Assembly: GCA_041662205.1 (NCBI GenBank)
Contig: JBAZSZ010000001.1
Location: 81,973-145,972, forward strand
Length of the DNA: 64,000 bases
DNA from: Minisyncoccota bacterium
GTDB lineage: Bacteria; Patescibacteriota; Minisyncoccia; Phycocordibacterales; UBA9973
Direction: 5' to 3'
The stretch's first letter is position 1; every line of letters starts with the position of its first letter. Under the pieces are notes generated by a model that was given only the letters and a program-made list of their open reading frames with translations, was not told the origin of the DNA and ran no database searches. The translations under genes were made by a program, and so were the position numbers. Shown here in pieces: positions 9,510 to 61,753 of this stretch.

Positions 9510-9550
9510 TAGAAAATCCCCCGCTTGTAGGCAGGGGACTCTCATTTTTT
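9510..9550. terminator. Bidirectional hairpin plus T/A tracts between convergent nspC (+) and rnpB (-)
   Basis: The hairpin is tcccccgc-ttgtag-gcagggga. T8 follows on the plus strand and TTTTCTATT follows on the minus strand. Confidence 0.4.
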
Positions 9551-9552
9551 TT

Positions 9553-9843
9553 GTAGGTATCTATAAGCCGAATTTTGTTCTCCGACCAAGGTCGGAGTGA
9601 CAGCAATTTGTCTAGGCCTCTCATTACTGACAGGCTCAAGCGATTCTATCCGACCTAAGTCGGATCACGATCTTGCACAAGAGTAAGTATTTAGCCGTTT
9701 CACCCGAACTAAATCGGTTCGTCACTGTTCGCAACTCCATATCACTATGGGAGGGAATTACCCTCTACTTTTCCAGATTAAACTGGTTTGTGTTCGGACT
9801 TTCCTCTCTATCCTAAAGGTTAGAGTAGCTATCCGATACCTAC
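9553..9843 (-). ncRNA. rnpB: RNase P RNA, bacterial type, compact (~290 nt)
   Basis: The minus strand reads AGGTATCGGATAG...GAGAGGAAAGTCCGAACAC (the P4 5' strand GGAAAGUCCG), then ...CGGGTGAAACGGC... and ...ACAAAATTCGGCTTATAGATACCT. The last segment is the P4 3' strand ACAnAAnnCGGCUUA plus a P1 closing helix aggtatc/gatacct. The region is ORF-free. Confidence 0.7.
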
Positions 9844-9849
9844 CTTTTT

Positions 9850-10143: not shown

Positions 10144-10145
10144 CG

Positions 10146-10218
10146 TGGACCCAAGGAGACTCGAACTCCTTACCTCCTCATTGCAAATGAGGCGCTCTAC
10201 CAGATGAGCTATGGGCCC
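10146..10218 (-). tRNA. tRNA-Ala (anticodon TGC)
   Basis: The minus strand reads GGGCCCATAGCTCATCTGGTAGAGCGCCTCATTTGCAATGAGGAGGTAAGGAGTTCGAGTCTCCTTGGGTCCA. The cloverleaf is complete, with the G3:U70 Ala identity pair and A73. CCA is not encoded. Confidence 0.9.
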
Positions 10219-10259
10219 AATATTTATTGTTGAGCTATGGGTACTTACTCAATAAAACT

Positions 10260-10287
10260 ATTCTATCTTATTTTACCAATAATGCAA
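10260..10287 (-). promoter_or_regulatory. Sigma70-like promoter for tRNA-Ala: TTGCAT, a 16-nt spacer, then TAGAAT
   Basis: The minus strand reads aatTTGCATtattggtaaaataagaTAGAATag, about 40 nt upstream of tRNA position 1. Confidence 0.35.
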
Positions 10288-10362
10288 ATTTTATATTTGA
10301 AATAGTTGACGGTTTAGGAAGATGGTGTATGATTAGAGATTATATCTCAAATGTAATTATAT

Positions 10363-11037
10363 ATGAAGATTCTGATTGTTGAAGATGAAGAAAATATTGC
10401 TAAACTTTTAAAAAAGGGTCTCGAATCTGAGGGTTATGCTGTTGATTACTTGACGGATGGGGAGTCTGGGCAAAATCGTATTTTAATGCATCATCAAGAT
10501 TATGATTTAATAATTTTGGATTTGATGCTTCCTTTGAAATCTGGAAAGGAGATTTGCCACAGTATGAGAGAGATGGATATTTCTACTCCGGTTTTAGTGT
10601 TAACTGCGAAATGTGATTCAGTCAGCAAAGTATCTTTGCTCGATATCGGAGCCGATGACTATATGTCAAAACCGTTCGAACTTGCAGAATTATTTGCCAG
10701 AATCAGAGCTTTGACTCGACGACCCAAAGTTTCTCTGCCGGTAGAATTGAAAATAAGTGATCTGGTTTTATCTGCGAAAGATAAAAAGGTTTTTAGAAAC
10801 AAAAAAGATTTAAATCTTACTTTAAAAGAATTCAGACTCTTAGAATATTTTATGCGTCGTCCCAACCAAGTAGTAGAGAGAGTTGACTTGGTGGATAACC
10901 TTTGGGATTTTGATCAAGATTCATTTTCTAATACGGTGGATGTGTATATAAATCGCTTAAGGAATAAAGTAGATAAAGGCAGAAAAGAAAAAATGATTCA
11001 AACAATTCGCGGAGTAGGATACAAATTAAAAGTTTAA
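10363..11037 (+). CDS. OmpR-family response regulator (receiver plus winged-helix DNA-binding domain)
   Basis: MKILIVEDEENIAKLL, the IILDLMLP Asp pocket and the C-terminal pattern YINRLRNKVD...IRGVGYKL are present. No kinase is adjacent. Confidence 0.85.
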   Translation: MKILIVEDEENIAKLLKKGLESEGYAVDYLTDGESGQNRILMHHQDYDLIILDLMLPLKSGKEICHSMREMDISTPVLVLTAKCDSVSKVSLLDIGADDYMSKPFELAELFARIRALTRRPKVSLPVELKISDLVLSAKDKKVFRNKKDLNLTLKEFRLLEYFMRRPNQVVERVDLVDNLWDFDQDSFSNTVDVYINRLRNKVDKGRKEKMIQTIRGVGYKLKV

Positions 11038-11289
11038 ATTTATTTTTACCACGAATCACTCTTTTAATAATAGAGAAATCTTCTTTTTTTTGATGTGGGG
11101 AACAGTTATATTTCCTTCATAAAATACAAGCTTTTTTTGGAAATTAATAAGATGTCCCTTAGGTTTTTGATGTCCTTTATGCTCTTTCTTTATGTCTTTA
11201 ATACTAAATTTAATTTTTCTTGTCAATATTTGCCTATTATTAAAAGTCGATTTTTTTATTAGTATTTATTATTAAATATATTTAAATAT

Positions 11290-14200
11290 ATGGAAACTAG
11301 TTATAGTTATTTAAAAAACTTAGGAAAAATTTTTATAATTCTATCTGTTCTCATTTTTCCACTCGAAAATATTAGTAGTGTAGAAGCGGCCATACTAACA
11401 CCGGATGCCAGCGTGGTAGATGGTGTGGAAAATAAAAATGTAACTTCTATTTTAGATAAGAGAAAAAATCGGGTGACGCAAGAACAAAGACAAGCGGCAG
11501 CCGATGCTCAAAATACAGGCGTAAGCATTTCCAGTTCTTCCAAGGTTCTTGGTGGAATCATAGCTCCGATGATGACTATAACCGCTCCGCTCGTAGCTGC
11601 GGTGACTGTACCAGCGCCAGGGGGAACCCCAAATTATTTTGGTCCGGAACCTAACTGGGCTTATACTCCGCTTTTAAGAAAATTCGTTGATACCCTCCCT
11701 GGTCTTGGTTCAGCTAATACAAATAATTTAGGACAATATATTCCAATTGCTGCTGCGGATACTGCTACATATCCAGGATCAGATTATTATGAAATAGGAT
11801 TAGTGCAATACACGGAAAAAATGCATTCAGATTTACCGGTGACAACTTTGCGAGGATATGTTCAGCTAGAGACATCTGTTAACGCTTCTGCCAGCAAACA
11901 TATCGCTTTGAAATATCCTAATGGTAATCCGATTTTAAATTCTAGCGGAGCTCAAGTTTTTGGTTTTGACAATCCTCATTATCTTGGGCCTACAATTGTA
12001 GCTCAAAAAGATAAACCTACGCGCATTAAATTTACAAATTTTCTTCCTACTGGGACAGGAGGCAATCTTTTTATACCAGTTGATACTTCGGTGATGGGAG
12101 CTGGCATGGGTCCTTTAGATATGCCAGGAATGCCAGGAATGAAAGAAGATTATACTCAAAATAGAGCAACTCTCCATCTTCATGGAGGAAATACTCCGTG
12201 GATTTCCGATGGTACTCCGCATCAATGGACTACTCCAGCCGGAGAAAACACCCAATATCCAGAGGGGGTGAGTGTGTCTAATGTGCCAGATATGCCAGAC
12301 CCAGGAGTAGGATCTCTAACATTTTTTTATAGCAATCAGCAAAGCGCGCGTTTGATGTTTTATCATGACCATGCGTTTGGTATCACTCGACTTAATGTTT
12401 ATGCTGGTGAAGCGGCTGGATATTTATTAACAGATGCTACGGAACAAAATTTAATTTCAACTGGAGTAATACCATCTGATCAAATTCCTCTAATTATTCA
12501 GGATAAAACTTTTGTTGATGCCACAACAATTAGAGCAACCGATCCAACATGGAACTGGGGTCCAACTCCAGGTACACCTCATTCTGGTGATCTTTGGATT
12601 CCACATGTTTATATGCCTAATCAGAATCCTAATAGTAATAACGGTGTAAATCCTTTTGGACGTTGGGATTATGGTCCTTGGTTCTGGCCTCCTTGGCCGG
12701 CTGTGAATGCTCCAATTACGAAAGCAGATGGAACAGAAGTTCCCAATGTCCCAGATGTTTCGATGGGTATGGAAGCATTCAATGACACTCCACTTGTAAA
12801 TGGGACGGCTTATCCAAGTTTAACACTTCAACCGAAAGCTTATAGATTCCGTATTTTAAATGCTGCTAATGACAGATTTTGGAATTTACAACTCATTCAA
12901 GCAGACCCAACTGTTATTTCTTCAGATGGTCGCGCTAATACTGATGTAAAAGTGGTGCCATTTACGACCAGTACGACTTGGCCAGCTGGATATCCGACAC
13001 CAGATACTAGAGATGGGGGAGTGCCTGATCCGACGACTAGGGGTCCGGTCATGACTCAGATCGGTACAGAAGGCGGATTTCTACCAGCTCCTGTGACTCA
13101 CAATAATATTCCTATTGGATTTGATATGGATGGGAAAAGTATTACAGTGGGTAATGTCAAAGAACATAATTTACTATTAGGCCCAGCCGAAAGAGCAGAT
13201 GTCATAGTTGATTTTTCTGCTTACGCTGGAAAAACTTTGATTCTTTATAATGACGCTCCGGCTGCTTTTCCTGCTAGTGACCCGCGATTGGATTATTATA
13301 CTGGTAATCCTGATATGACAACCACTGGTGGAACGACTTCTACTTTGGCTGGTTTTGGACCAAATACTAGGACTATCATGCAAATCAAAATAGCTGCAGG
13401 TACTCCCATTCCTTTTAATCTAACTCCTTTAAATACCGCTTTACCAGCAGCATTCGCATCATCACAAGATCAAATCATAGTACCTCAGGAAGGATATAAT
13501 GCTGTATATAACGGAAATTTCCCAAATAATAGGAATGCTTATGCTAGAATTCAAGACACTTCATTAACTTTCACTCCGCTTGGCGGAACAACACCAGTAA
13601 CAATTCCTTTTGCGCCTAAAGCTATCGCTGAAGAATTCGAAAGTGTCTATGGGCGTATGAGCGGATTCCTAGGGCTCGAACTTCCATTTACTAATGGTGG
13701 AAATCAGACAACAATTTTTTACGATTATCAAGATCCGACTTCTGAAATTATAAATGATACTAATAATATATCAACGGCACAAATAGGAACACTTGGCGAT
13801 GGTACCCAGATATGGAAAATAACACATAACGGAGTAGATACTCATCCTATACATTTCCACTTATTTAATGTCCAGCTCGTAAATCGGGTGGATTGGGCTG
13901 GTGTAGTAAAACCACCAGAACCTAATGAGCTCGGCTGGAAAGAAACAGTGCGGATGAATCCCCTTGAAGACGCCATAGTTGCTCTAAGACCGGTTTCACC
14001 AAAACAACCTTTTGGAATACCAGAAAGTGTAAGACCGCTTGATCCAACAATGCCACTTGGAACAACTGCTCAGTTTAAAGGAGTAGACGCAAACGGCAAT
14101 CCGATAACAGTTACAAATGAGCTAGCGAACTTTGGGTGGGAATATGTTTGGCACTGCCATATTTTGAGCCATGAAGAAATGGATATGATGCGTCCGATTA

Positions 14201-14685
14201 AATTTAACGTTGCAAGTACGCTTCCAATTACACCTGGTTTAAATGCTACTAAAGTAGGAAATCAAGTAAATCTAACATGGACAGATGGAACTCCTGTAAG
14301 TAATCCAACTACCCTCGGTAATCCTGCTAATGAAGTTGGTTTTCGTGTTGAGAGAGCTATTGTGACTGGTGGTAACCCTGGCATATACACAGAGATCGGA
14401 AAAGGTATCGCCAATTCTACAACTTTTACAGACACTGCTATAGCATCTAGTACAACTTATAGCTATCGAGTGGTTGCATTCAATGCAGCAGGAGATGCAT
14501 CTTCAGCACCAAGAACAGTATCTATAACCGGCACAGTTTGCCAAACTGGAGCCGATACTAGTGGAAACGGAATTATCACCATAGCAGAATTACTAGCCTA
14601 CATAAGTAGGTGGAAAGCAGGAAATGTCACAATGCAACTTCTTATGCAAGCAATCAGTTTTTGGAAAATAGGAACAGGTTGTTAA
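11290..14685 (+). CDS. Large secreted multicopper oxidase (laccase/CotA-like) with an Fn3-like region and a C-terminal Cys-bracketed EF-hand/dockerin-like module
   Basis: All four Cu-ligand motifs are present: HLHGG, HDHAFG, HPIHFHLFNVQ and WHCHILSHEEMDMM. An N-terminal hydrophobic anchor is present. The C-terminus reads CQTGADTSGNGIITIAELLAYISRWKAGNV...FWKIGTGC and ends at the stop. Confidence 0.8.
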   Translation: METSYSYLKNLGKIFIILSVLIFPLENISSVEAAILTPDASVVDGVENKNVTSILDKRKNRVTQEQRQAAADAQNTGVSISSSSKVLGGIIAPMMTITAPLVAAVTVPAPGGTPNYFGPEPNWAYTPLLRKFVDTLPGLGSANTNNLGQYIPIAAADTATYPGSDYYEIGLVQYTEKMHSDLPVTTLRGYVQLETSVNASASKHIALKYPNGNPILNSSGAQVFGFDNPHYLGPTIVAQKDKPTRIKFTNFLPTGTGGNLFIPVDTSVMGAGMGPLDMPGMPGMKEDYTQNRATLHLHGGNTPWISDGTPHQWTTPAGENTQYPEGVSVSNVPDMPDPGVGSLTFFYSNQQSARLMFYHDHAFGITRLNVYAGEAAGYLLTDATEQNLISTGVIPSDQIPLIIQDKTFVDATTIRATDPTWNWGPTPGTPHSGDLWIPHVYMPNQNPNSNNGVNPFGRWDYGPWFWPPWPAVNAPITKADGTEVPNVPDVSMGMEAFNDTPLVNGTAYPSLTLQPKAYRFRILNAANDRFWNLQLIQADPTVISSDGRANTDVKVVPFTTSTTWPAGYPTPDTRDGGVPDPTTRGPVMTQIGTEGGFLPAPVTHNNIPIGFDMDGKSITVGNVKEHNLLLGPAERADVIVDFSAYAGKTLILYNDAPAAFPASDPRLDYYTGNPDMTTTGGTTSTLAGFGPNTRTIMQIKIAAGTPIPFNLTPLNTALPAAFASSQDQIIVPQEGYNAVYNGNFPNNRNAYARIQDTSLTFTPLGGTTPVTIPFAPKAIAEEFESVYGRMSGFLGLELPFTNGGNQTTIFYDYQDPTSEIINDTNNISTAQIGTLGDGTQIWKITHNGVDTHPIHFHLFNVQLVNRVDWAGVVKPPEPNELGWKETVRMNPLEDAIVALRPVSPKQPFGIPESVRPLDPTMPLGTTAQFKGVDANGNPITVTNELANFGWEYVWHCHILSHEEMDMMRPIKFNVASTLPITPGLNATKVGNQVNLTWTDGTPVSNPTTLGNPANEVGFRVERAIVTGGNPGIYTEIGKGIANSTTFTDTAIASSTTYSYRVVAFNAAGDASSAPRTVSITGTVCQTGADTSGNGIITIAELLAYISRWKAGNVTMQLLMQAISFWKIGTGC

Positions 14686-14849
14686 AAAAATTAAAAAGCA
14701 GGCCTTACTTCATTTGTTTAGTTTTTAATAATAAATTTAACTTTAACTTTTAACATGTAAGTATAATTTTATTATAAGGATTTGAGTGAAGCGAAGGGTC
14801 GAATAGTTAGTCGAATATAAAAATATTATAAAAATAAAGAATAAAAATT

Positions 14850-16829
14850 ATGAATAAAAAAAGTATTAAAGCGTTATATGTGTTGTTGTTTGCAAAAATG
14901 AATAGAAAAGTTAAATATAAATTTAGCGCGTCTCTGTTGACAGGTGTTTTTATGTTTACTTTAGTATTTAGCGCTGGAGTGGCACAAGCTGCGTTGCAAG
15001 CTGTCGGGCCAATAGGAGATCCTGTAAATAATGGATATCCTACATATTTCCAAGATCAAACAGGATTAGCTTTGGAATTATGTCTGGTACAAAATTTACC
15101 AACCGACCTATTCCAACCATGTCTCTTGACTGCGGAATTTGATCCAGACCCATTAATAACACCTGGCATTCCAGCAATTCCAATTGGAACAGTTCTTAGC
15201 GGGGATTTTCCAGATGAATCATTTTACTTTGCCGCTAGCGCAGACTTAAGTCCTGACAATGTTAGACTTCCTGGAAGAAATCAGGATATCAAAATTTTGT
15301 GGGGGGCTGCTTTAGAGCAAGCCTTTTTGGCCGGAATAACTCCTGGAGCACAAAGCATGTTTTTAAGAACTCAAGTTGATATAGCTGGTTTAATCCCCGG
15401 AGAAACTTATACTGTCAATACTCCTTACGGACCGATTAGTGTGGTTGCTGATGATATCGGTGGAGGGAGAACAAGATTTGAGGACATAGTAGTCTGCAAC
15501 GTTGGAACTCTATGTAATTTTTCATTAATCTTACCGGGGACTCAAACAAATATGGGGCCATTTCTAAAATGGGATCCTGCGGTTTTACCTCTTGCCCCAG
15601 CTGGATTTATCGGTGATCCTAATGTAACACACACAATTATCGGTGGACCAATTAGGAATAATATTTCTGTTACAGGAACAAGTGTTGGGGGAGTCGGCAT
15701 AGATGAAATGTCCACTGATCAATTTTCAATTTCTGGGAAAATAGCAATCATTGACACTGTCGCACCAGTAATTGTTTCAACTACTCCTGCCTCTGTACCA
15801 GTAAATTCTTCTAATGTTGTTTTAAGCGCAAACATTACTGACGACTTAGGAGTGACTGGAGTTACAGCTGATTTAGGAGCATTAAGCAACACTTTTTCTG
15901 CTACTCTTAATAATACACAGGAAGTTCCTGCAACCGTAAGTACTGCAACAGGAACTGGAGCATTTACTATTGATGCAAATGCAAATACATTAACTTATAA
16001 TATTAGTGCTTCAGGTTTGCAAGGTGGAGCAATCACCGGAATGCATATTCACGGATCTGCTGTTCCTCCAGATGGAGCTATAGGTCAAAATTCAGCAATT
16101 GCTTTTAGCTTAGGTACGACTCTTCCGGCAAGTGGAACCTGGAATTATCCTGAAGCAATGGAACCAGAAATTTTAGCAGGAAGGACTTATGTAAATATTC
16201 ACACAACTTTATTTCCTAACGGTGAAATTCGCGGACAAATAATTCCTACCCCAAACACAGTAACTATGATCAGGAATGCCGGTACAGCAACAGACGGCAC
16301 ATGGGCACTTATTCTACCAAATTTGAATAGAGCAGGATTATTTAATATTCCTATTACAGCTACCGATGGAAGCAATCCTGTAACAACTAATCATTCTCTC
16401 GCTGTCACTGTTTTATCTGGAGTGAATGTCACTCCACCAACTGCTTCAATAAATACAGGATTAACTCAACAACTCTCAGCATCAGCTCTCGATCAATTTA
16501 ATAATCCACTAACTACCCAACCAACTTTTACTTGGTCTTCTAGTAATAACAATATTGCAACAGTTAATAGTTCAGGCCTAGTTACTGCAGTCGCTCTCGG
16601 TACTGCCACGATTACAGCCACAACTGATGGATTAATAAATGTTGCAGGTACTTCGGCAATCACAGTGACGGCAGCTTCAGTTTGCCAGACAGCAGCTGAT
16701 ATAGATGGTAGCGGAACTATAAGCTTTGCGGAAGTTCTAAGCTATATTACAAGCTGGAAAGCCGGCAACGTAGTTTTTTCAACTTTATTACAAGCAATAG
16801 GTTTTTGGAAAGCTGCAGTAGGTTGTTAA
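14850..16829 (+). CDS. Secreted CHRD-domain plus Big2-domain protein with the same C-terminal Cys-bracketed module
   Basis: A signal peptide is present. The CHRD-like segment reads GAFTIDANANTLTYNISASGLQGGAITGMHIHGS...YVNIHTTLFPNGEIRGQI. The Big2-like segment reads TQQLSASALDQFNNPLT...ATVNSSGLVTAVALGTATITATT. The C-terminus reads CQTAADIDGSGTISFAEVLSYITSWKAGNV...FWKAAVGC and ends at the stop. Confidence 0.65.
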   Translation: MNKKSIKALYVLLFAKMNRKVKYKFSASLLTGVFMFTLVFSAGVAQAALQAVGPIGDPVNNGYPTYFQDQTGLALELCLVQNLPTDLFQPCLLTAEFDPDPLITPGIPAIPIGTVLSGDFPDESFYFAASADLSPDNVRLPGRNQDIKILWGAALEQAFLAGITPGAQSMFLRTQVDIAGLIPGETYTVNTPYGPISVVADDIGGGRTRFEDIVVCNVGTLCNFSLILPGTQTNMGPFLKWDPAVLPLAPAGFIGDPNVTHTIIGGPIRNNISVTGTSVGGVGIDEMSTDQFSISGKIAIIDTVAPVIVSTTPASVPVNSSNVVLSANITDDLGVTGVTADLGALSNTFSATLNNTQEVPATVSTATGTGAFTIDANANTLTYNISASGLQGGAITGMHIHGSAVPPDGAIGQNSAIAFSLGTTLPASGTWNYPEAMEPEILAGRTYVNIHTTLFPNGEIRGQIIPTPNTVTMIRNAGTATDGTWALILPNLNRAGLFNIPITATDGSNPVTTNHSLAVTVLSGVNVTPPTASINTGLTQQLSASALDQFNNPLTTQPTFTWSSSNNNIATVNSSGLVTAVALGTATITATTDGLINVAGTSAITVTAASVCQTAADIDGSGTISFAEVLSYITSWKAGNVVFSTLLQAIGFWKAAVGC

Positions 16830-16875
16830 AAGTGTCGAAAAATTATTAGAATTACAAATTTTAAAATAAAAAATT

Positions 16876-19800
16876 ATGAAATACTTTAAATCAATAATCA
16901 AAGCGGGAATGTTCATAGCTGTGCTGACATTCTTTGTGGGAATAGGTGCTCAAGCAGCTTCTGCCGCCACCGTCACACGTAGCTTCTCCACTCTCACGCC
17001 AGCAGCAGGAACATCTTTAACAGTTTCTCTGGCTGTAGCAATGAATCCTGCAGACATTCTAACATTGATTGAAGAAACAGCTCCTGTGGGCTGGGTCATC
17101 ACAAATCCTGGAACAGGAACAGTAGGAGCAGACGGTATTTTGAGACTGAATGTAGCTGCAACCGGAACAGAGCAATATACAATCTCTGTACCAGCTTCAG
17201 CATCAGGAATAAATAATTTCTCAGGAGTATTTGCCACATTAGCAAACCCAGTATCCTCTCCAATAACAGGAAGCACATCGGTAACGGTAGCACCTGCTCC
17301 GGTAGTTGACATAACTCCACCTACAATCAACTTACTCGGAACTTCTCCAATAGATGTAACCCAAAACACAACCTACACTGATGCAGGAGCTACTGCTTCA
17401 GATAATGTTGACGGAAACATCACAGCCAACATTACAACAGTAAACCCTGTAAATACTGCAATTTTAGGAACATACACAGTCACTTACAATGTATCTGACG
17501 CAGCTGGAAATCCTGCAACTCAAGTAACAAGAACAGTTAATGTAGTAGCAGTAGTTGTTCCACCAGTAACCGCCACCGTCACACGTAGCTTCTCCACTCT
17601 CACGCCAGCAGCAGGAACATCTTTAACAGTTTCTCTGGCTGTAGCAATGAATCCTGCAGACATTCTAACATTGATTGAAGAAACAGCTCCTGTGGGCTGG
17701 GTCATCACAAATCCTGGAACAGGAACAGTAGGAGCAGACGGTATTTTGAGACTGAATGTAGCTGCAACCGGAACAGAGCAATATACAATCTCTGTACCAG
17801 CTTCAGCATCAGGAATAAATAATTTCTCAGGAGTATTTGCCACATTAGCAAACCCAGTATCCTCTCCAATAACAGGAAGCACATCGGTAACGGTAGCACC
17901 TGCTCCGGTAGTTCCAGTCCTCACCACCATCAACGTTACTTCCGTCACCCCATCCGTAGTAGTAGGCAATACTCAACAAATGACAGCAACTACTTTAGAT
18001 CAAAACGGAGCACCGATTGCAGCAACTGTAACTTGGTCTAGTTCAAATACAGCAGTTGGCACTATTGATGTTACTACCGGAATGTTTACCGCGGTTTCTG
18101 CTGGAACTACAACTGTAATGGCAATGAACGGAGCAGTTATGGGAACAACTTTGGTAACAGTAACCGCAACACCTGTAACGTTTACAATAAATGTAACTTC
18201 CGGAGCAAATGGTACCATTACACCAACAGGTACAGCAGGAGTAGTTACTTTAAATTCTGGAGCGAACCAAACATTTACCATCACACCAAATGCAGGATTT
18301 AATATTCAGGATGTTTTAGTTGATGGATCTTCAGTTGGAGCTGTTGCTACTTTCACATTTACAAACGTAACAGCTAACCATACTATTTCAGCTAGTTTCG
18401 CATCAATTCCGGTAGGTTCATTCACGATAACTTCTTCTGCAGGAATAAATGGTAACATAGCTCCTCTTGGCGCCCTAAGTTTTGCCGGAGGCACCAATGC
18501 AACATACACAATTTCTCCAAGTGCAGGTTTTCAAGTATTAGATGTTTTAGTTGATGGATTTTCAGTTGGAGCCGTCACTACTTTCACCTTCACAAATATC
18601 ACTGCTAACCATACAATCGCTGCCAGCTTTATTGCAACTCCAGTCCTCACAACTATCACCGTTACACCATCAGCACCATCAATACAGGCTGGAACTACCC
18701 AACAATTTACCGCAGTTGCTAAGGATCAAAATGGAATTGCCTTAGTCACTCAACCGGTTTTCACATGGACATCAGGAAATAATATAGTTACCACCATAGA
18801 TGCATCAGGCCTTGCTCAGGGCATCGTCGCAGGTGGACCAGTTCTCATTACTGCTACCTCTGGAGCAGTTTCTGGTACAGCTACCTTAACAGTTACAGCA
18901 GTTCCAGTTTTGACTTCGGTCACAGTAGCTCCACCTACACCATCAATTATAGTTGGAGCAACTCAGCAACTAACAGCAAATCCTTTAGATCAAAATGGAA
19001 TTGCCTTTAACGGTGCTGCAATAGCCTGGTCTTCAAGTGATTCTACAATTGCCACAGTTGATAATAACGGCTTAGTAACAGGTGTCGCAGTTGGAACAAC
19101 AACAATCACAGCAACAGCGACTTCAGGAGCTATTACTGTAACAGGAACCGCGACAATCACAATAACCGCTAATCCAGTAACTCCTGTCCTCACTACCATC
19201 AACGTTACTCCCGTCACCCCATCCGTAGTAGTAGGAAATACTCAACAAATGACAGCAACTACTTTAGATCAAAACGGAGCACCGATTGCAGCAACTGTAA
19301 CTTGGTCTAGTTCAAATACAGCAGTTGGCACTATTGATGTTACTACCGGAATGTTTACCGCGGTCGCAGTAGGCACTACCACAATTACTGCTACGAGTGG
19401 CGCGGTGACAGGAACAACTTTAGTAACAGTAACTCCTGCTCCTGTCCTCACTACCATCAACGTTACTCCCGTCACCCCATCCGTAGTAGTAGGCAATACT
19501 CAACAAATGACAGCAACTACTTTAGATCAAAACGGAGCACCGATTGCAGCAACTGTAACTTGGTCTAGTTCAAATACAGCAGTTGGCACTATTGATGTTA
19601 CTACCGGAATGTTTACCGCGGTCGCAGTAGGCACTACCACAATTACTGCTACGAGTGGCGCGGTGACAGGAACAACTTTGGTGACGGTGACAGCGGTGCC
19701 TCAATCTAGTGGAGGTGGTGGTAGTTTTATAAGACCCATTATTGTTGGTCAAGTATTAGGTGCTTTCACGGGACCAATTGCAGGATGTGGCAATAGAACA

Positions 19801-20175
19801 ACTGGATTTAGTGTAACTTCTGGTCAGTCTTGTGTTGGAAACACTGGATCAGAGGGTCAAATTCTCGGATGTGGCAATAGAACAACTGGATTTAGTATAA
19901 CTACTGGTCAATCTTGTATTGGAAATACTGGAGCAGATGAACAAGTGCTCGGTGCTGAAAAATTTATTTTCACACTATTCCTAAAGCAAGGTTCAAAAGG
20001 AGATGAAGTTATGGAGCTTCAGAAATTCTTAAACACTACTAAATATGGTCCATTAGTAATTGATGGAAAATTTGGGAAAAAGACTAAAGAAGCTGTTCTT
20101 AAATTCCAAATAGCAAACGGGCTAAAAGGGGATGGAATCGTAGGACCTCTAACCCGCGCAGTTCTCAATCAATAA
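16876..20175 (+). CDS. Cell-surface protein with a duplicated 114-aa domain, a HYR/DUF5011-like Ig domain, at least five Big2 repeats, a Cys repeat pair and a C-terminal peptidoglycan-binding domain
   Basis: A signal peptide is present. DITPPTINLLGTSPIDV...NVDGNITANITTV...TYNVSDAAGNP is the Ig-like domain. VGNTQQMTATTLDQNGAPIAATVTWSSSNTAVGTIDVTTGMFTAV recurs as the Big2 repeat. The C-terminus GSKGDEVMELQKFLN...IDGKFGKKTKEAVLKFQ is PG_binding_1-like. Confidence 0.7.
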   Translation: MKYFKSIIKAGMFIAVLTFFVGIGAQAASAATVTRSFSTLTPAAGTSLTVSLAVAMNPADILTLIEETAPVGWVITNPGTGTVGADGILRLNVAATGTEQYTISVPASASGINNFSGVFATLANPVSSPITGSTSVTVAPAPVVDITPPTINLLGTSPIDVTQNTTYTDAGATASDNVDGNITANITTVNPVNTAILGTYTVTYNVSDAAGNPATQVTRTVNVVAVVVPPVTATVTRSFSTLTPAAGTSLTVSLAVAMNPADILTLIEETAPVGWVITNPGTGTVGADGILRLNVAATGTEQYTISVPASASGINNFSGVFATLANPVSSPITGSTSVTVAPAPVVPVLTTINVTSVTPSVVVGNTQQMTATTLDQNGAPIAATVTWSSSNTAVGTIDVTTGMFTAVSAGTTTVMAMNGAVMGTTLVTVTATPVTFTINVTSGANGTITPTGTAGVVTLNSGANQTFTITPNAGFNIQDVLVDGSSVGAVATFTFTNVTANHTISASFASIPVGSFTITSSAGINGNIAPLGALSFAGGTNATYTISPSAGFQVLDVLVDGFSVGAVTTFTFTNITANHTIAASFIATPVLTTITVTPSAPSIQAGTTQQFTAVAKDQNGIALVTQPVFTWTSGNNIVTTIDASGLAQGIVAGGPVLITATSGAVSGTATLTVTAVPVLTSVTVAPPTPSIIVGATQQLTANPLDQNGIAFNGAAIAWSSSDSTIATVDNNGLVTGVAVGTTTITATATSGAITVTGTATITITANPVTPVLTTINVTPVTPSVVVGNTQQMTATTLDQNGAPIAATVTWSSSNTAVGTIDVTTGMFTAVAVGTTTITATSGAVTGTTLVTVTPAPVLTTINVTPVTPSVVVGNTQQMTATTLDQNGAPIAATVTWSSSNTAVGTIDVTTGMFTAVAVGTTTITATSGAVTGTTLVTVTAVPQSSGGGGSFIRPIIVGQVLGAFTGPIAGCGNRTTGFSVTSGQSCVGNTGSEGQILGCGNRTTGFSITTGQSCIGNTGADEQVLGAEKFIFTLFLKQGSKGDEVMELQKFLNTTKYGPLVIDGKFGKKTKEAVLKFQIANGLKGDGIVGPLTRAVLNQ
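16964..17913. repeat. Two apparently identical 344-bp direct repeats (16964-17307 and 17570-17913), 606 bp apart, inside the surface-protein gene
   Basis: Both copies start at ccgccaccgtcacacgtagcttctcc and end at cacctgctccggtagtt. The protein segments ATVTRSF...APAPVV are identical. The minus-strand ORFs 16950..17369 and 17520..17969 translate identically. Confidence 0.85.
19183..19698. repeat. Tandem near-identical 258-bp (86-aa Big2) repeats, with a more diverged copy at ~17914-18100
   Basis: cctgtcctcactaccatcaacgttactcccgtcaccccatccgtagtagtagg... recurs at 19183 and 19441. Confidence 0.8.
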
Positions 20176-20203
20176 GTAAATTATCAGCTTCTTTAAGCTA
20201 AAC

Positions 20204-20240
20204 AAAAAAACCGGATTAGTCCTCCGGTTTTTTTGTTTTT
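20204..20240 (+). terminator. Rho-independent terminator after the surface-protein gene
   Basis: The sequence is aaaaaaaccgga-ttagtcc-tccggttttttt. Confidence 0.6.
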
Positions 20241-20288
20241 TTCTTTGTTTTCTGCTAATATAAAAAAAGTTCTTTGAAGAAAATAAAT

Positions 20289-20602
20289 TCCGGGGTAGCT
20301 CAGCGGTAGAGCGGTCGCCTGTGTCAGCATTACGCAGCTTCCTAAGAAAACTTAGGTTGAAAAACAAGGTGAATTCGGGGAAGCCCTTATGGGGTAATCC
20401 CGAGCCAAGCCTCAATATAATATTGAGGAAGGTGTAGAGACTATCCATTTATTGGAGTACATCGGCAAATCGTCGGTGGAAGCGCCTTGCTCCTAAGTTC
20501 TTAAAATCATTTTAAGAATATGGAGATGATATAGTCCACACTTCTAGTAATAGGAGACAAAGTGTAAGCGATTGGTCGTAGGTTCGATCCCTACCCCCGG
20601 AG
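20289..20602 (+). tRNA. tRNA-Asn (anticodon GTT), interrupted. Exon 1 is 20289-20322 (positions 1-35), exon 2 is 20565-20602 (positions 36-73) and the intron is 20323-20564.
   Basis: The exons read TCCGGGGTAGCTCAGCGGTAGAGCGGTCGCCTGT|TAAGCGATTGGTCGTAGGTTCGATCCCTACCCCCGGAG. The acceptor is UCCGGGG/CCCCGGA with U1-A72 and G73. The anticodon loop CUGUUAA matches bacterial tRNA-Asn. Confidence 0.8.
20323..20564 (+). ncRNA. Group I self-splicing intron (242 nt) in the tRNA-Asn anticodon loop, between U35 and U36
   Basis: P1 forms between exon CUGU plus intron GU and the internal guide ACGCAG, placing a U:G wobble at the 5' splice site. The intron ends in G (omega G). The candidate P7 strands are AGACUA and UAGUC. 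Hairpins at cctaagAAAActtagg, cctcaataTAAtattgagg and ttcttaaaATCAttttaagaa fit P2, P6 and P9. Confidence 0.7.
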
Positions 20603-59934: not shown

Positions 59935-60008
59935 TGGTGCGGGATGCGAGAATCGAACTCGCGTCTAATCCTTGGGAAGGACTCATTCTACCACTAAACC
60001 AATCCCGC
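59935..60008 (-). tRNA. tRNA-Gly (anticodon CCC), CCA encoded
   Basis: The minus strand reads GCGGGATTGGTTTAGTGGTAGAATGAGTCCTTCCCAAGGATTAGACGCGAGTTCGATTCTCGCATCCCGCACCA. Confidence 0.8.
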
Positions 60009-60046
60009 ATATTATGTTTTCAAAATATCTTAGTAGACTTAGAAAT

Positions 60047-60076
60047 ACTCATTTTACCACTAAACCAATCCCGCAT
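60047..60076. repeat. Direct repeat of the 5' portion (acceptor/D-arm) of tRNA-Gly, 29 of 30 nt identical to 59979-60008
   Basis: actcattttaccactaaaccaatcccgcat matches actcattctaccactaaaccaatcccgcat. Confidence 0.7.
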
Positions 60077-60155
60077 ATAAGAAAATATAGCTTTATTTTA
60101 GATGCTTGACAAGTGTGCTATAATTGAAATATTAGAAATTAATTATAAAAATATT

Positions 60156-60389
60156 ATGAAAAATGTAACAATTTATTCAACCGATACCTGTCATTTTTGC
60201 CACTTGGCAAAAGATTTCTTTACTGCAAATAGTGTAGTTTTTACTGAATACAATGTAGGAACTGATATAGAAAAAAGAAAAGAAATGATGGAAAAAAGCG
60301 GACAAATGGGTGTGCCGGTTATTATGATTGGTGATGAAATCATCGTAGGTTTTGATAAACCTAAAATCTCTCAATTATTAGGTCTCTAG
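60156..60389 (+). CDS. Glutaredoxin/NrdH-like thioredoxin-fold protein (CxxC)
   Basis: MKNVTIYSTDTCHFCHLAKDF...GQMGVPVIMIGDEIIVGFD is present. Confidence 0.6.
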   Translation: MKNVTIYSTDTCHFCHLAKDFFTANSVVFTEYNVGTDIEKRKEMMEKSGQMGVPVIMIGDEIIVGFDKPKISQLLGL

Positions 60390-60499
60390 TTTGTGTGGCT
60401 ACAAATAATTTCTCGCCGTCGCTCGAAATTTTCGCAGCCCACCCCTCGCAATTTTGTGTTCTCACAAAATATCGTTGCGGTCGGCACACTAACGTAAAA

Positions 60500-60527
60500 A
60501 CATGCAGCAGTGCATGTTTTATACTTG
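60500..60527 (-). terminator. Hairpin plus T-tract after tRNA-Arg on the minus strand
   Basis: The hairpin is aaaacatgca-gcag-tgcatgtttt. Confidence 0.5.
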
Positions 60528-60529
60528 TG

Positions 60530-60601
60530 TGCCCTCGGTACGAATCGAACGTGCATCTATTCCTTAGGACGGAACTGTTCTATCCATTGAACTACGAGGG
60601 C
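60530..60601 (-). tRNA. tRNA-Arg (anticodon CCT), atypical: G32, an A:C mismatch in the T-stem and no CCA
   Basis: The minus strand reads GCCCTCGTAGTTCAATGGATAGAACAGTTCCGTCCTAAGGAATAGATGCACGTTCGATTCGTACCGAGGGCA. The acceptor and D stems are perfect. Confidence 0.55.
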
Positions 60602-60674
60602 AGTGTTTATAATCTATCATATAAAGAGTTTTTTTGGAATTGGGTTTCAAAAATAGATGTGATATTATAGTATT

Positions 60675-61364
60675 ATGGAGAGTATATCAATAAAAGATGA
60701 TCAAGAACCAGAAAAAACTTTAATGGAAGTTAAGGCAGAGATGGAGGTGATAGGCAAGGAAACCAAAGCAGAGATAGAAAAACTAAGGGCCGAAAACGAA
60801 GAGCTAAAAAATATTATTGAAAATTTAGATCATAGACTCAATATTGATTCCCTGACTGGTCTTTTAAAAGATGTAGAGCCAAGATTGGGAAGATTAATAA
60901 AAAGACTAGAATTTTCCAAAGAATTAAAACCTGAACAATTTGCCTTACGTTCAGTTATGGTAGTTACTATGGATTTAAATCGTTTCAAAACTTTAAATGA
61001 TACTTATGGTCATGCTGCTGGAGATGAGGCGTTAACTCTTTTTGCTGAGCGTCTTCAAACAGTTTCAAAAGAGGGAAAGGATATTTTATTTCGACCTCAT
61101 GGTGATGAGTTTGTGATGGTACTTCCTATTGAAAATACAGAAGACGCTATTACTCAAGAACTTTATGAAACAATTTTTCAAAGACTTCATAAAAAAGTGA
61201 ATGATAATTTATTTGTTAAAGTTTCTAATGGAACTAAATTCTCGTTTTCTGCTTCAATGGGATATGTAGTGGTAGAAAGAGGTAATACTAAAAATGTAAA
61301 AGAACTGCTTCACGATGCTGATTTAGAAATGTATAAAGATAAAGAACTATTAAAGAGTAAATAA
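60675..61364 (+). CDS. GGDEF-domain protein with an N-terminal coiled coil. The signature reads HGDEF rather than GGDEF.
   Basis: RFKTLNDTYGHAAGDEAL and RPHGDEFVMVLP are present. Confidence 0.6.
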   Translation: MESISIKDDQEPEKTLMEVKAEMEVIGKETKAEIEKLRAENEELKNIIENLDHRLNIDSLTGLLKDVEPRLGRLIKRLEFSKELKPEQFALRSVMVVTMDLNRFKTLNDTYGHAAGDEALTLFAERLQTVSKEGKDILFRPHGDEFVMVLPIENTEDAITQELYETIFQRLHKKVNDNLFVKVSNGTKFSFSASMGYVVVERGNTKNVKELLHDADLEMYKDKELLKSK

Positions 61365-61416
61365 TATTCTAAGTTTTTTACTTTTATTTTTTTAAATTTT
61401 ATGCTAAATTATACCT

Positions 61417-61674
61417 ATGGATTCTGAATCCAAAAAGTTATTAGAAGACACTTTTGCTCTTGCGGAAGAGAATAATAAAATGCTTCATTCTGTAGTACGC
61501 TCTATGCGTATTTCTCGTATTATGAGCATTATGTATTGGTTACTCATTATTGGCTCTGCTTTGGGTGCTTATTATCTTATTCAGCCTTATGTCGATCAAT
61601 TGATGGGTATATACGGTGGAGCAAAAAGTGGTTTGGATAATTTTGGTTCTATATTAGATAATTTTTCAAATTAA
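61417..61674 (+). CDS. Small membrane protein (hypothetical)
   Basis: One TM helix is present. Confidence 0.3.
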   Translation: MDSESKKLLEDTFALAEENNKMLHSVVRSMRISRIMSIMYWLLIIGSALGAYYLIQPYVDQLMGIYGGAKSGLDNFGSILDNFSN

Positions 61675-61679
61675 ATATT

Positions 61680-61753
61680 GCCTGGGTAGCTCAGTAGTAG
61701 AGCGTTCCCCTGAAGAGGGACAGGTCGGGTGTGCGATCCACCCCCCAGGCACC
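61680..61753 (+). tRNA. tRNA-Phe (anticodon GAA)
   Basis: The sequence is GCCTGGGTAGCTCAGTAGTAGAGCGTTCCCCTGAAGAGGGACAGGTCGGGTGTGCGATCCACCCCCCAGGCACC. The anticodon loop is CUGAAGA. Base 27-43 is mismatched and the T-loop reads TGCGATC. Confidence 0.75.

Follow-up and report, generated by a model that had tools for sequence, protein, structure and literature searches.

A probable group I intron in the anticodon loop of a Patescibacteria tRNA-Asn(GUU) gene, with empty-site and endonuclease-bearing relatives

Within the stretch of DNA analyzed here (64,000 nucleotides, hereafter the window), positions 20289-20602 very probably represent an interrupted but functional tRNA-Asn(GUU) gene, whose anticodon loop is split by a group I intron of 242 nt, inserted at 35/36. 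This reading had been put forward in a preliminary description of the same DNA, and a match to the Rfam group I model, covariation among homologues, and the existence of empty-site alleles all agree with it. The features of the locus are as follows.

20200..20238, + strand: intrinsic terminator of the upstream gene
20289..20322, + strand: tRNA-Asn exon 1 (acceptor 5' strand, D arm, anticodon stem 5' strand, loop bases C32 U33 G34 U35)
20323..20564, + strand: predicted group I intron, 242 nt, subgroup IA-like, no endonuclease gene (Rfam RF00028; covariation in alignment A2, described below)
20565..20602, + strand: tRNA-Asn exon 2 (U36 A37 A38, anticodon stem 3' strand, variable loop, T arm, acceptor 3' strand, discriminator G73)

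Exon 1 has the sequence TCCGGGGTAGCTCAGCGGTAGAGCGGTCGCCTGT, its 3' end reading ...GCCTGT, while exon 2, which starts with TAAGCGAT, has the sequence TAAGCGATTGGTCGTAGGTTCGATCCCTACCCCCGGAG; the exon coordinates given previously, with 242 nt between them, were borne out. A CCA is not encoded after exon 2, where the next bases are CAT TTT. When joined, the exons give a 72-nt tRNA-Asn(gtt) with a normal cloverleaf according to ARAGORN run on the ligated sequence, a call that upholds the CUGUUAA anticodon loop, U1-A72 pair, and G73 recognized earlier in the joined exons. The predicted ligated junction reads ...GGTCGCCTGT followed directly by TAAGCGATTGG..., or, with a slash marking the splice point, ...CCUGU/UAAGCG... 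in the RNA. At the native locus, ARAGORN called no gene in its default mode, and in its intron mode it miscalled a tRNA-Ile(aat) with a 228-nt intron; on the relatives, the intron mode returned a mixture of Asn, Thr, and other calls, and we replaced it with our own enumeration of U(-1)/omega-G junctions. A gene that is missed or mislabelled by standard tRNA finders would make its genome seem devoid of tRNA-Asn and lower the completeness score, and the same point on the annotation consequence of missed intron-bearing tRNA genes was made by Nakagawa et al. (mSystems 2026, PMC13011429).

A survey of related genomes for intron-less tRNA-Asn alleles had been suggested as a check, and it returned two such tRNA-Asn(GTT) genes, at positions 2193-2267 of locus L001 and 2058-2130 of locus L004, both 100% identical to the ligated exons over all 72 nt. 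These loci were reached through homologues of the neighbouring DUF1428 gene, with the intron-less tRNA-Asn lying a few kb away; the homologues are not syntenic with the window, and the window protein is not on record. L004 shares the upstream region of the window (84.6% over 104 nt), with an alignment that breaks exactly between 20322 and 20565, and is an empty-site allele of the tRNA-Asn locus; the empty-site sequence is GGTCGCCTGTTAAGCGATTGG. In a comparison with the 115 intron-less tRNAs found in the fetched loci, tRNA-Asn scored 63 and the next best isotype 31. No tRNA-Thr gene was among these 115, and a Thr identity is therefore excluded by the other arguments given below, and not by the isotype score. 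Homologues of neighbouring genes, together with the syntenic loci L016 and L058, place the host of the window as a putative Paceibacteria/Nomurabacteria-like member of the Patescibacteria. At L001 (1983-2267), there is an overlap between the 5' end of the intron-less tRNA-Asn and a 76-aa GIY-YIG ORF (Pfam E 5e-9); this ORF beside an empty site could be a free-standing or truncated nuclease, or a coincidence.

The region located 3' of the upstream terminator (20224-20288) shows 84.6% conservation relative to the sequence preceding the intron-less L004 gene, and it likely is the promoter region of the tRNA-Asn gene. As a guess, TTGTTT (20233-20238) and TAATAT (20256-20261) might serve as -35 and -10 elements; a consensus promoter scan did not report this pair at these positions.

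The intervening sequence begins with GT and ends with G. A search with the Rfam group I covariance model, also suggested beforehand, gave a significant match to Intron_gpI (RF00028) at 20252-20557, scoring 67.3 bits, where the gathering score is 50, with an E value of 6.6e-15. The resulting alignment is sensible only in the P3-P9 core, where the posterior probability is high; its P1/P2 part is misplaced onto A/T-rich upstream sequence (20252-20297), and exon 1, P1, and P2 are treated as an insertion. A second Rfam pass over the whole window, at E values up to 0.05, found no further introns or unexpected RNAs. The precursor has an MFE z-score of -5.4, with none of 100 shuffles folding equally well, and its unconstrained MFE fold already contains P2, P3, P4/P5, P6, two post-P7 hairpins, P8, and P9. 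A model built by hand comprises the following elements.

20319..20337, + strand: P1, CUGU/GU (20319-20324) with the internal guide ACGCAG (20332-20337); loop L1 at 20325-20331
20341..20356, + strand: P2 hairpin CCUAAG-AAAA-CUUAGG; 5 of 6 pairs changed on both sides, 98.5% paired
20365..20371, + strand: P3 5' strand CAAGGUG, pairing with 20483-20489; 100% paired, 2 pairs with double changes
20375..20403, + strand: P4 (20375-20380 with 20398-20403), J4/5 AA, and P5 hairpin (20383-20395); 99.2% paired (helix 7)
20405..20432, + strand: P6 (CC/GG) and P6a hairpin (helix 9); 6 of 6 pairs changed on both sides, 100% paired
20437..20443, + strand: P7 5' strand G-A(bulge)-GACUA (GAGACTA in DNA); invariant in 11 of 11 sequences
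20444..20456, + strand: P7.1 hairpin, from the MFE fold; compensatory changes such as UCCA/UGGA, UCUC/GAGA, and UCCC/GGGA in A2
20460..20478, + strand: P7.2 hairpin, from the MFE fold; 5 of 5 pairs changed on both sides
20483..20489, + strand: P3 3' strand CGCCUUG
20490..20525, + strand: P8 and its extension P8a (helices 15 and 16)
20532..20537, + strand: P7 3' strand UAGUCC, with J8/7 AUGAUA directly before it
20541..20556, + strand: P9 hairpin with a GUAA (GNRA) tetraloop; 4 of 6 pairs with double changes
20564, + strand: omega-G, last intron base; invariant as G276 in A2, and the alignment with the intron-less allele resumes at 20565

Pairing was counted on alignment A2, which holds the window and ten clean Patescibacteria homologues and leaves out L057, whose large insertions allow no reliable alignment, and L026, which has an N-run and a duplicated core. 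At the latter locus (1476-1899), the homologous intron contains a run of N and a second P4-P7 core, most probably an artefact of scaffolding rather than a genuine tandem ribozyme. In A2, standard pairs make up 95.2% of the cells; the figure is 85.2% for shuffles and 36-47% for slid controls. Changes on both sides are seen in 47 of 97 pairs, compared to 22.7 ± 2.9 in shuffles; none of 500 shuffles reached any of the observed pairing measures. Covariation is heavy in P2, P6a, P7.2, P8a, and P9, and present at some pairs of P3, P5 (two covarying pairs), P7.1, and P8. P4, the short P6, and P7 are invariant among the homologues, so that their support comes from the match to the Rfam consensus rather than from covariation. 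Overall, the P3-P8 core with its P3/P7 pseudoknot, which characterizes group I introns, is found with compensatory changes in P3, P5, P6a, P8, and P9, and G20439-C20536 in P7 occupies the position of the guanosine-binding pair. The loop of P9 is GUAA in nine sequences and GCAA in two.

The preliminary description had also read, directly from the letters, a 6-bp P1 placing a U:G wobble at the 5' splice site, and this helix withstood the comparison: the U35·G wobble, formed by the last exon base (20322) with 20334, is U·G in 11 of 11 sequences, and the pair involving the first intron base covaries (GC in six, GU in three, and AU in two), which fixes the P1 register. The terminal intron G was likewise confirmed at 20564, the P7-like strands correspond to GAGACTA (20437-20443) and TAGTCC (20532-20537), and the hairpins expected for P2, P6, and P9 were recovered at 20341-20356, 20405-20432, and 20541-20556, respectively. 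For P10, the pairing of the guide with the 3' exon, A2 offers at most U-A, A-U, A-U with one skipped base, and this is not conserved in relatives; P10 does not form part of the model.

With regard to subgroup, both MFE folding and covariation place P7.1 and P7.2 between P7 and the 3' strand of P3, as expected of subgroup IA, and the 39 nt (20444-20482) that separate P7 from P3' differ from the direct P7-P3' succession that defines IC3. Based on these two hairpins and the published classification of its relatives, the intron appears to be IA-like; in the classification by Nakagawa et al., 25 of the 28 introns located at 35/36 fell into IA, and no tRNA intron from Patescibacteria was placed in IC (PMC13011429).

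No sense-strand ORF of 60 aa or more was found in 20323-20564. The only ORF of at least 60 aa overlapping the intron is an antisense ORF of 99 aa (20149-20448), which has no Pfam match and also spans the upstream terminator and exon 1. The endonuclease ORF of a mobile intron is hence absent from the window copy, as 242 nt are too short to accommodate such a gene and no suitable sense ORF exists.

The lack of an endonuclease gene would also fit a late stage of a homing cycle, and one could therefore picture the intervening sequence as a decayed intron that no longer self-splices, leaving either a tRNA pseudogene or a gene whose splicing needs a protein cofactor. The weak P10 would be in line with such decay, as would the scope of our analysis, which covered 64 kb of the genome and leaves room for further tRNA-Asn genes beyond the window. 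We nonetheless hold decay to be very improbable. In the window copy, all pairs of every proposed helix are standard and no core helix is disrupted; its conserved junction sequences agree with those of homologues whose structure is maintained through compensatory changes; the exons are identical to functional-looking intron-less alleles; and a HEG-less homologue self-spliced without protein (PMC13011429).

A second alternative keeps the intron but moves its boundaries 2 nt upstream, so that exon 1 would end at 20320, the intron would span 20321-20562, and the product would be a tRNA-Thr(UGU) interrupted at 33/34. This shift predicts a mature tRNA with CCUUGUAAGC and a junction reading CCT/TGTAAGC. 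Such a boundary also has a U(-1) and a terminal intron G, the joined sequence is accepted by ARAGORN as tRNA-Thr(tgt), and a Thr call is given by ARAGORN and tFind for many of the published homologues (PMC13011429, Table 1). The structure of P1 speaks against it, however, as the guide G wobbles with U35 in 11 of 11 sequences, whereas U33 would make a U-A Watson-Crick pair; furthermore, the homologous intron at L099 ends ...AAAACG, with no alternative omega-G, and only the Asn boundary is possible there. The U1-A72 pair and G73, which we take to be the state of bacterial tRNA-Asn as in E. coli tRNA-Asn, also count against a threonine identity. Moreover, joining at the Asn boundary exactly reproduces genuine tRNA-Asn genes that lack an intron, the L004 breakpoint falls at the Asn boundary, and the spliced products of a homologue, when sequenced, showed the 35/36 junction (PMC13011429). 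On these grounds we rejected the 33/34 boundary, which strikes us as very unlikely, and retained tRNA-Asn(GUU). That 20323-20564 might be an unrelated spacer between two separate genes or tRNA fragments, a reading raised in the preliminary description and compatible with standard tRNA finders calling nothing here, is scarcely credible and was ruled out, given that neither half alone is a tRNA, that what lies between them matches the group I model significantly and shows covariation, and that the halves abut exactly in the intron-less alleles.

With a group I intron in tRNA-Asn(GUU), maturation would be expected to proceed as follows. A precursor of about 314 nt plus leader would be transcribed, and the 242 nt between the exons would fold into a ribozyme with P1-P9 and the IA hairpins P7.1 and P7.2. 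The guide ACGCAG would pair with C32-U35 and the first two intron bases, creating the U35·G wobble at the 5' splice site. The first attack, after U35, would come from an external guanosine bound at the P7 G-C pair; the terminal intron G (20564) would next occupy the guanosine site, and the freed 3'-OH of U35 would attack before U36, ligating the exons into a 72-nt tRNA with anticodon GUU. RNase P would then trim the 5' end, and CCA would be added after transcription. Guanosine-dependent self-splicing of the window intron would be expected by homology to the validated precursor of GCA_016700035.1: over aligned columns, the window precursor is 81-83% identical to three published precursors, of which this is one. 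Catalysis by the window copy itself, the use of the promoter, RNase P processing, and CCA addition are steps that we infer. An RNase P RNA gene does lie within the same window (9548-9844, - strand); it is of bacterial class A, measures 297 nt against a model of 367 positions, and scores 107.5 bits, barely above the Rfam threshold of 100, with several helices shortened or deleted, and it looks like a reduced form.

To place the intron among its relatives, a core-pattern scan was performed on one genome per species, and it yielded at least 120 loci; the hosts among the matches listed include Leu, Met, Phe, Arg, and Thr tRNAs and come from many phyla. By our own enumeration of U(-1)/omega-G junctions, short Asn(GUU) introns at 35/36 occur in at least 12 loci, and the 12 listed are all Patescibacteria MAGs, labelled Nomurabacteria, Paceibacterota, Portnoybacteria, Berkelbacteria, 'Saccharibacteria', or unclassified. 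tRNA-Phe(GAA), a common group I host among the listed core-pattern Patescibacteria loci, is intron-free in the window, where it forms a cluster with tRNA-Gly(CCC) and tRNA-Arg(CCT) (59935-61753) whose genes are all uninterrupted.

Four relatives carry an HNH-like ORF in the P1 loop of the tRNA-Asn intron.

L016 341-691, - strand: HNH-like ORF in the P1 loop
L103 222-572, - strand: HNH-like ORF in the P1 loop
L115 1318-1650, + strand: HNH-like ORF in the P1 loop
L102 3519-3833, - strand: HNH-like ORF in the P1 loop

In these loci, exon 1 and the 5' splice site are as in the window, and the P1 loop contains about 330 inserted nt, which encode a protein of 104-116 aa. The intron starts with GTCAG or GTCGG in L016, L103, and L115, like the window copy, and with GAGAC in L102. 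The L016 ORF is above the Pfam HNH cut-off (22.7 bits vs 21.4), and that of L102 just under it (19.8 bits). A sequence similar to an extended -10 element, TGGTATAAT, stands just inside the intron of L016, L103, and L115, ahead of the ORF. The ORFs of L016 and L115 end ...GITQLP, so that translation runs through the internal guide ACGCAGCTTCC, whose bases double as ribozyme guide and coding sequence. Next to these relatives, with their HNH gene in the P1 loop, the window intron has the look of such an element at a stage without an endonuclease.

Metagenomes provided a further sample, though not a census, of 120 contigs (L127-L246) that contain the 17-nt end of exon 1, GTAGAGCGGTCGCCTGT. About 84 of the contigs sampled continue after this exon end into an uninterrupted anticodon loop, and at least 18 are interrupted at the tRNA-Asn intron site, with introns of 244-298 nt in eight, of 559-649 nt in five, and running off the contig in five. 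Since the same exon-1 end occurs both uninterrupted and interrupted, the intron is polymorphic for one tRNA allele. Taken together with the contigs that share parts of the window gene neighbourhood, one identical tRNA-Asn allele was found in three states, namely empty, with intron only, and with intron plus HNH gene. We tentatively raise the possibility, which we regard as less probable than its negation, that the window copy is a snapshot of a homing cycle of intron gain, endonuclease loss, and intron loss running in Paceibacteria-like lineages. If this were true, these tRNA introns would be more mobile than in the published view of limited horizontal transfer. A weaker idea is that a retained intron might gate tRNA-Asn maturation by the supply of guanosine nucleotides in reduced cells.

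The interval between tRNA-Ala(TGC) and tRNA-Asn also differs among loci. In L004 (1869-2130), 116 bp separate tRNA-Ala(TGC), on the - strand, from tRNA-Asn, on the + strand; in L016 (76-1989), one 347-aa gene lies between them; and in the window (10145-20289) they are 10 kb apart, with three very large surface-protein genes in between. This interval is a variable insertion hotspot.

11290-14685: surface-protein gene, Cu-oxidase-like domain
14850-16829: surface-protein gene, CHRD and Big_2
16876-20175: surface-protein gene, five Big_2 and PG-binding

The class of tRNA-Asn introns at 35/36 is already known: its description dates from 2020, and its splicing in vitro was demonstrated in 2026. Williams (bioRxiv 2020, 10.1101/2020.01.27.920355) raised the number of interrupted tRNA types in bacteria from the classical four to 21 cases, and the type name 'Asn.4Ug' is credited to that work by Nakagawa et al. 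These authors reported, in 95 complete Patescibacteria genomes, 15 tRNA-Asn(GUU) genes with group I introns at 35/36, described as IA, and three tRNA-Asp(GUC) genes whose group I introns sit at the same position; one Asn and one Asp intron self-spliced precisely in vitro, as seen by sequencing of the ligated exons and with an omega-G-to-C negative control (PMC13011429). The earlier suggestion that Asn(GUU) is not a standard host is correct insofar as it is not among the four classical ones, but such a host had already been published (Williams 2020; PMC13011429). The exact window sequence does not appear in the searched parts of the supplementary tables of PMC13011429, a study restricted to complete genomes. 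The only, and small, addition made here is the allele seen in its empty, intron-only, and HNH-bearing states.

The resemblance to phage group I introns, such as those interrupting the DNA polymerase gene in T7-like phages, does not extend beyond the conserved core: BLAST returned two pieces with 88-90% identity over about 25% of the query and one 74.5% match over P6 to P7.2, and no phage record covered 80% or more of the query. Unlike the window intron, those of phages reside within protein-coding genes, often with HNH genes in other loops. The classical IC3 tRNA introns, found in tRNA-Leu(UAA) at 34/35 in cyanobacteria, tRNA-fMet at 33/34, tRNA-Arg(CCU) at 36/37, and tRNA-Ile(CAU) in Azoarcus, resemble it in being small and usually without an ORF, and the IC3 examples of a published table share its J6/7-P7 sequence GAAGGTGTAGAGACTA. 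In those examples, however, P3' follows directly after P7 (agacta-gacggcagg), whereas the window intron has 39 nt of P7.1 and P7.2 inserted there, and host tRNA and position (35/36) differ as well.

The closest resemblance is to the introns of PMC13011429, from which no functional difference was found. Host tRNA, 35/36 site, phylum, and size range (184-894 nt, with a mean of 257, in the published set) are the same, as are the IA-type core and the hairpins between P7 and P3'. Also shared are the Asn/Thr boundary ambiguity noted in that study, the failure of annotation tools, with ARAGORN and tFind miscalling the intron-bearing Asn and Asp genes, and the HNH genes of some relatives, four of the published tRNA-Asn introns carrying HNH endonuclease genes. 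The window intron would thus be one more example of the IA-type tRNA introns enriched in Patescibacteria.
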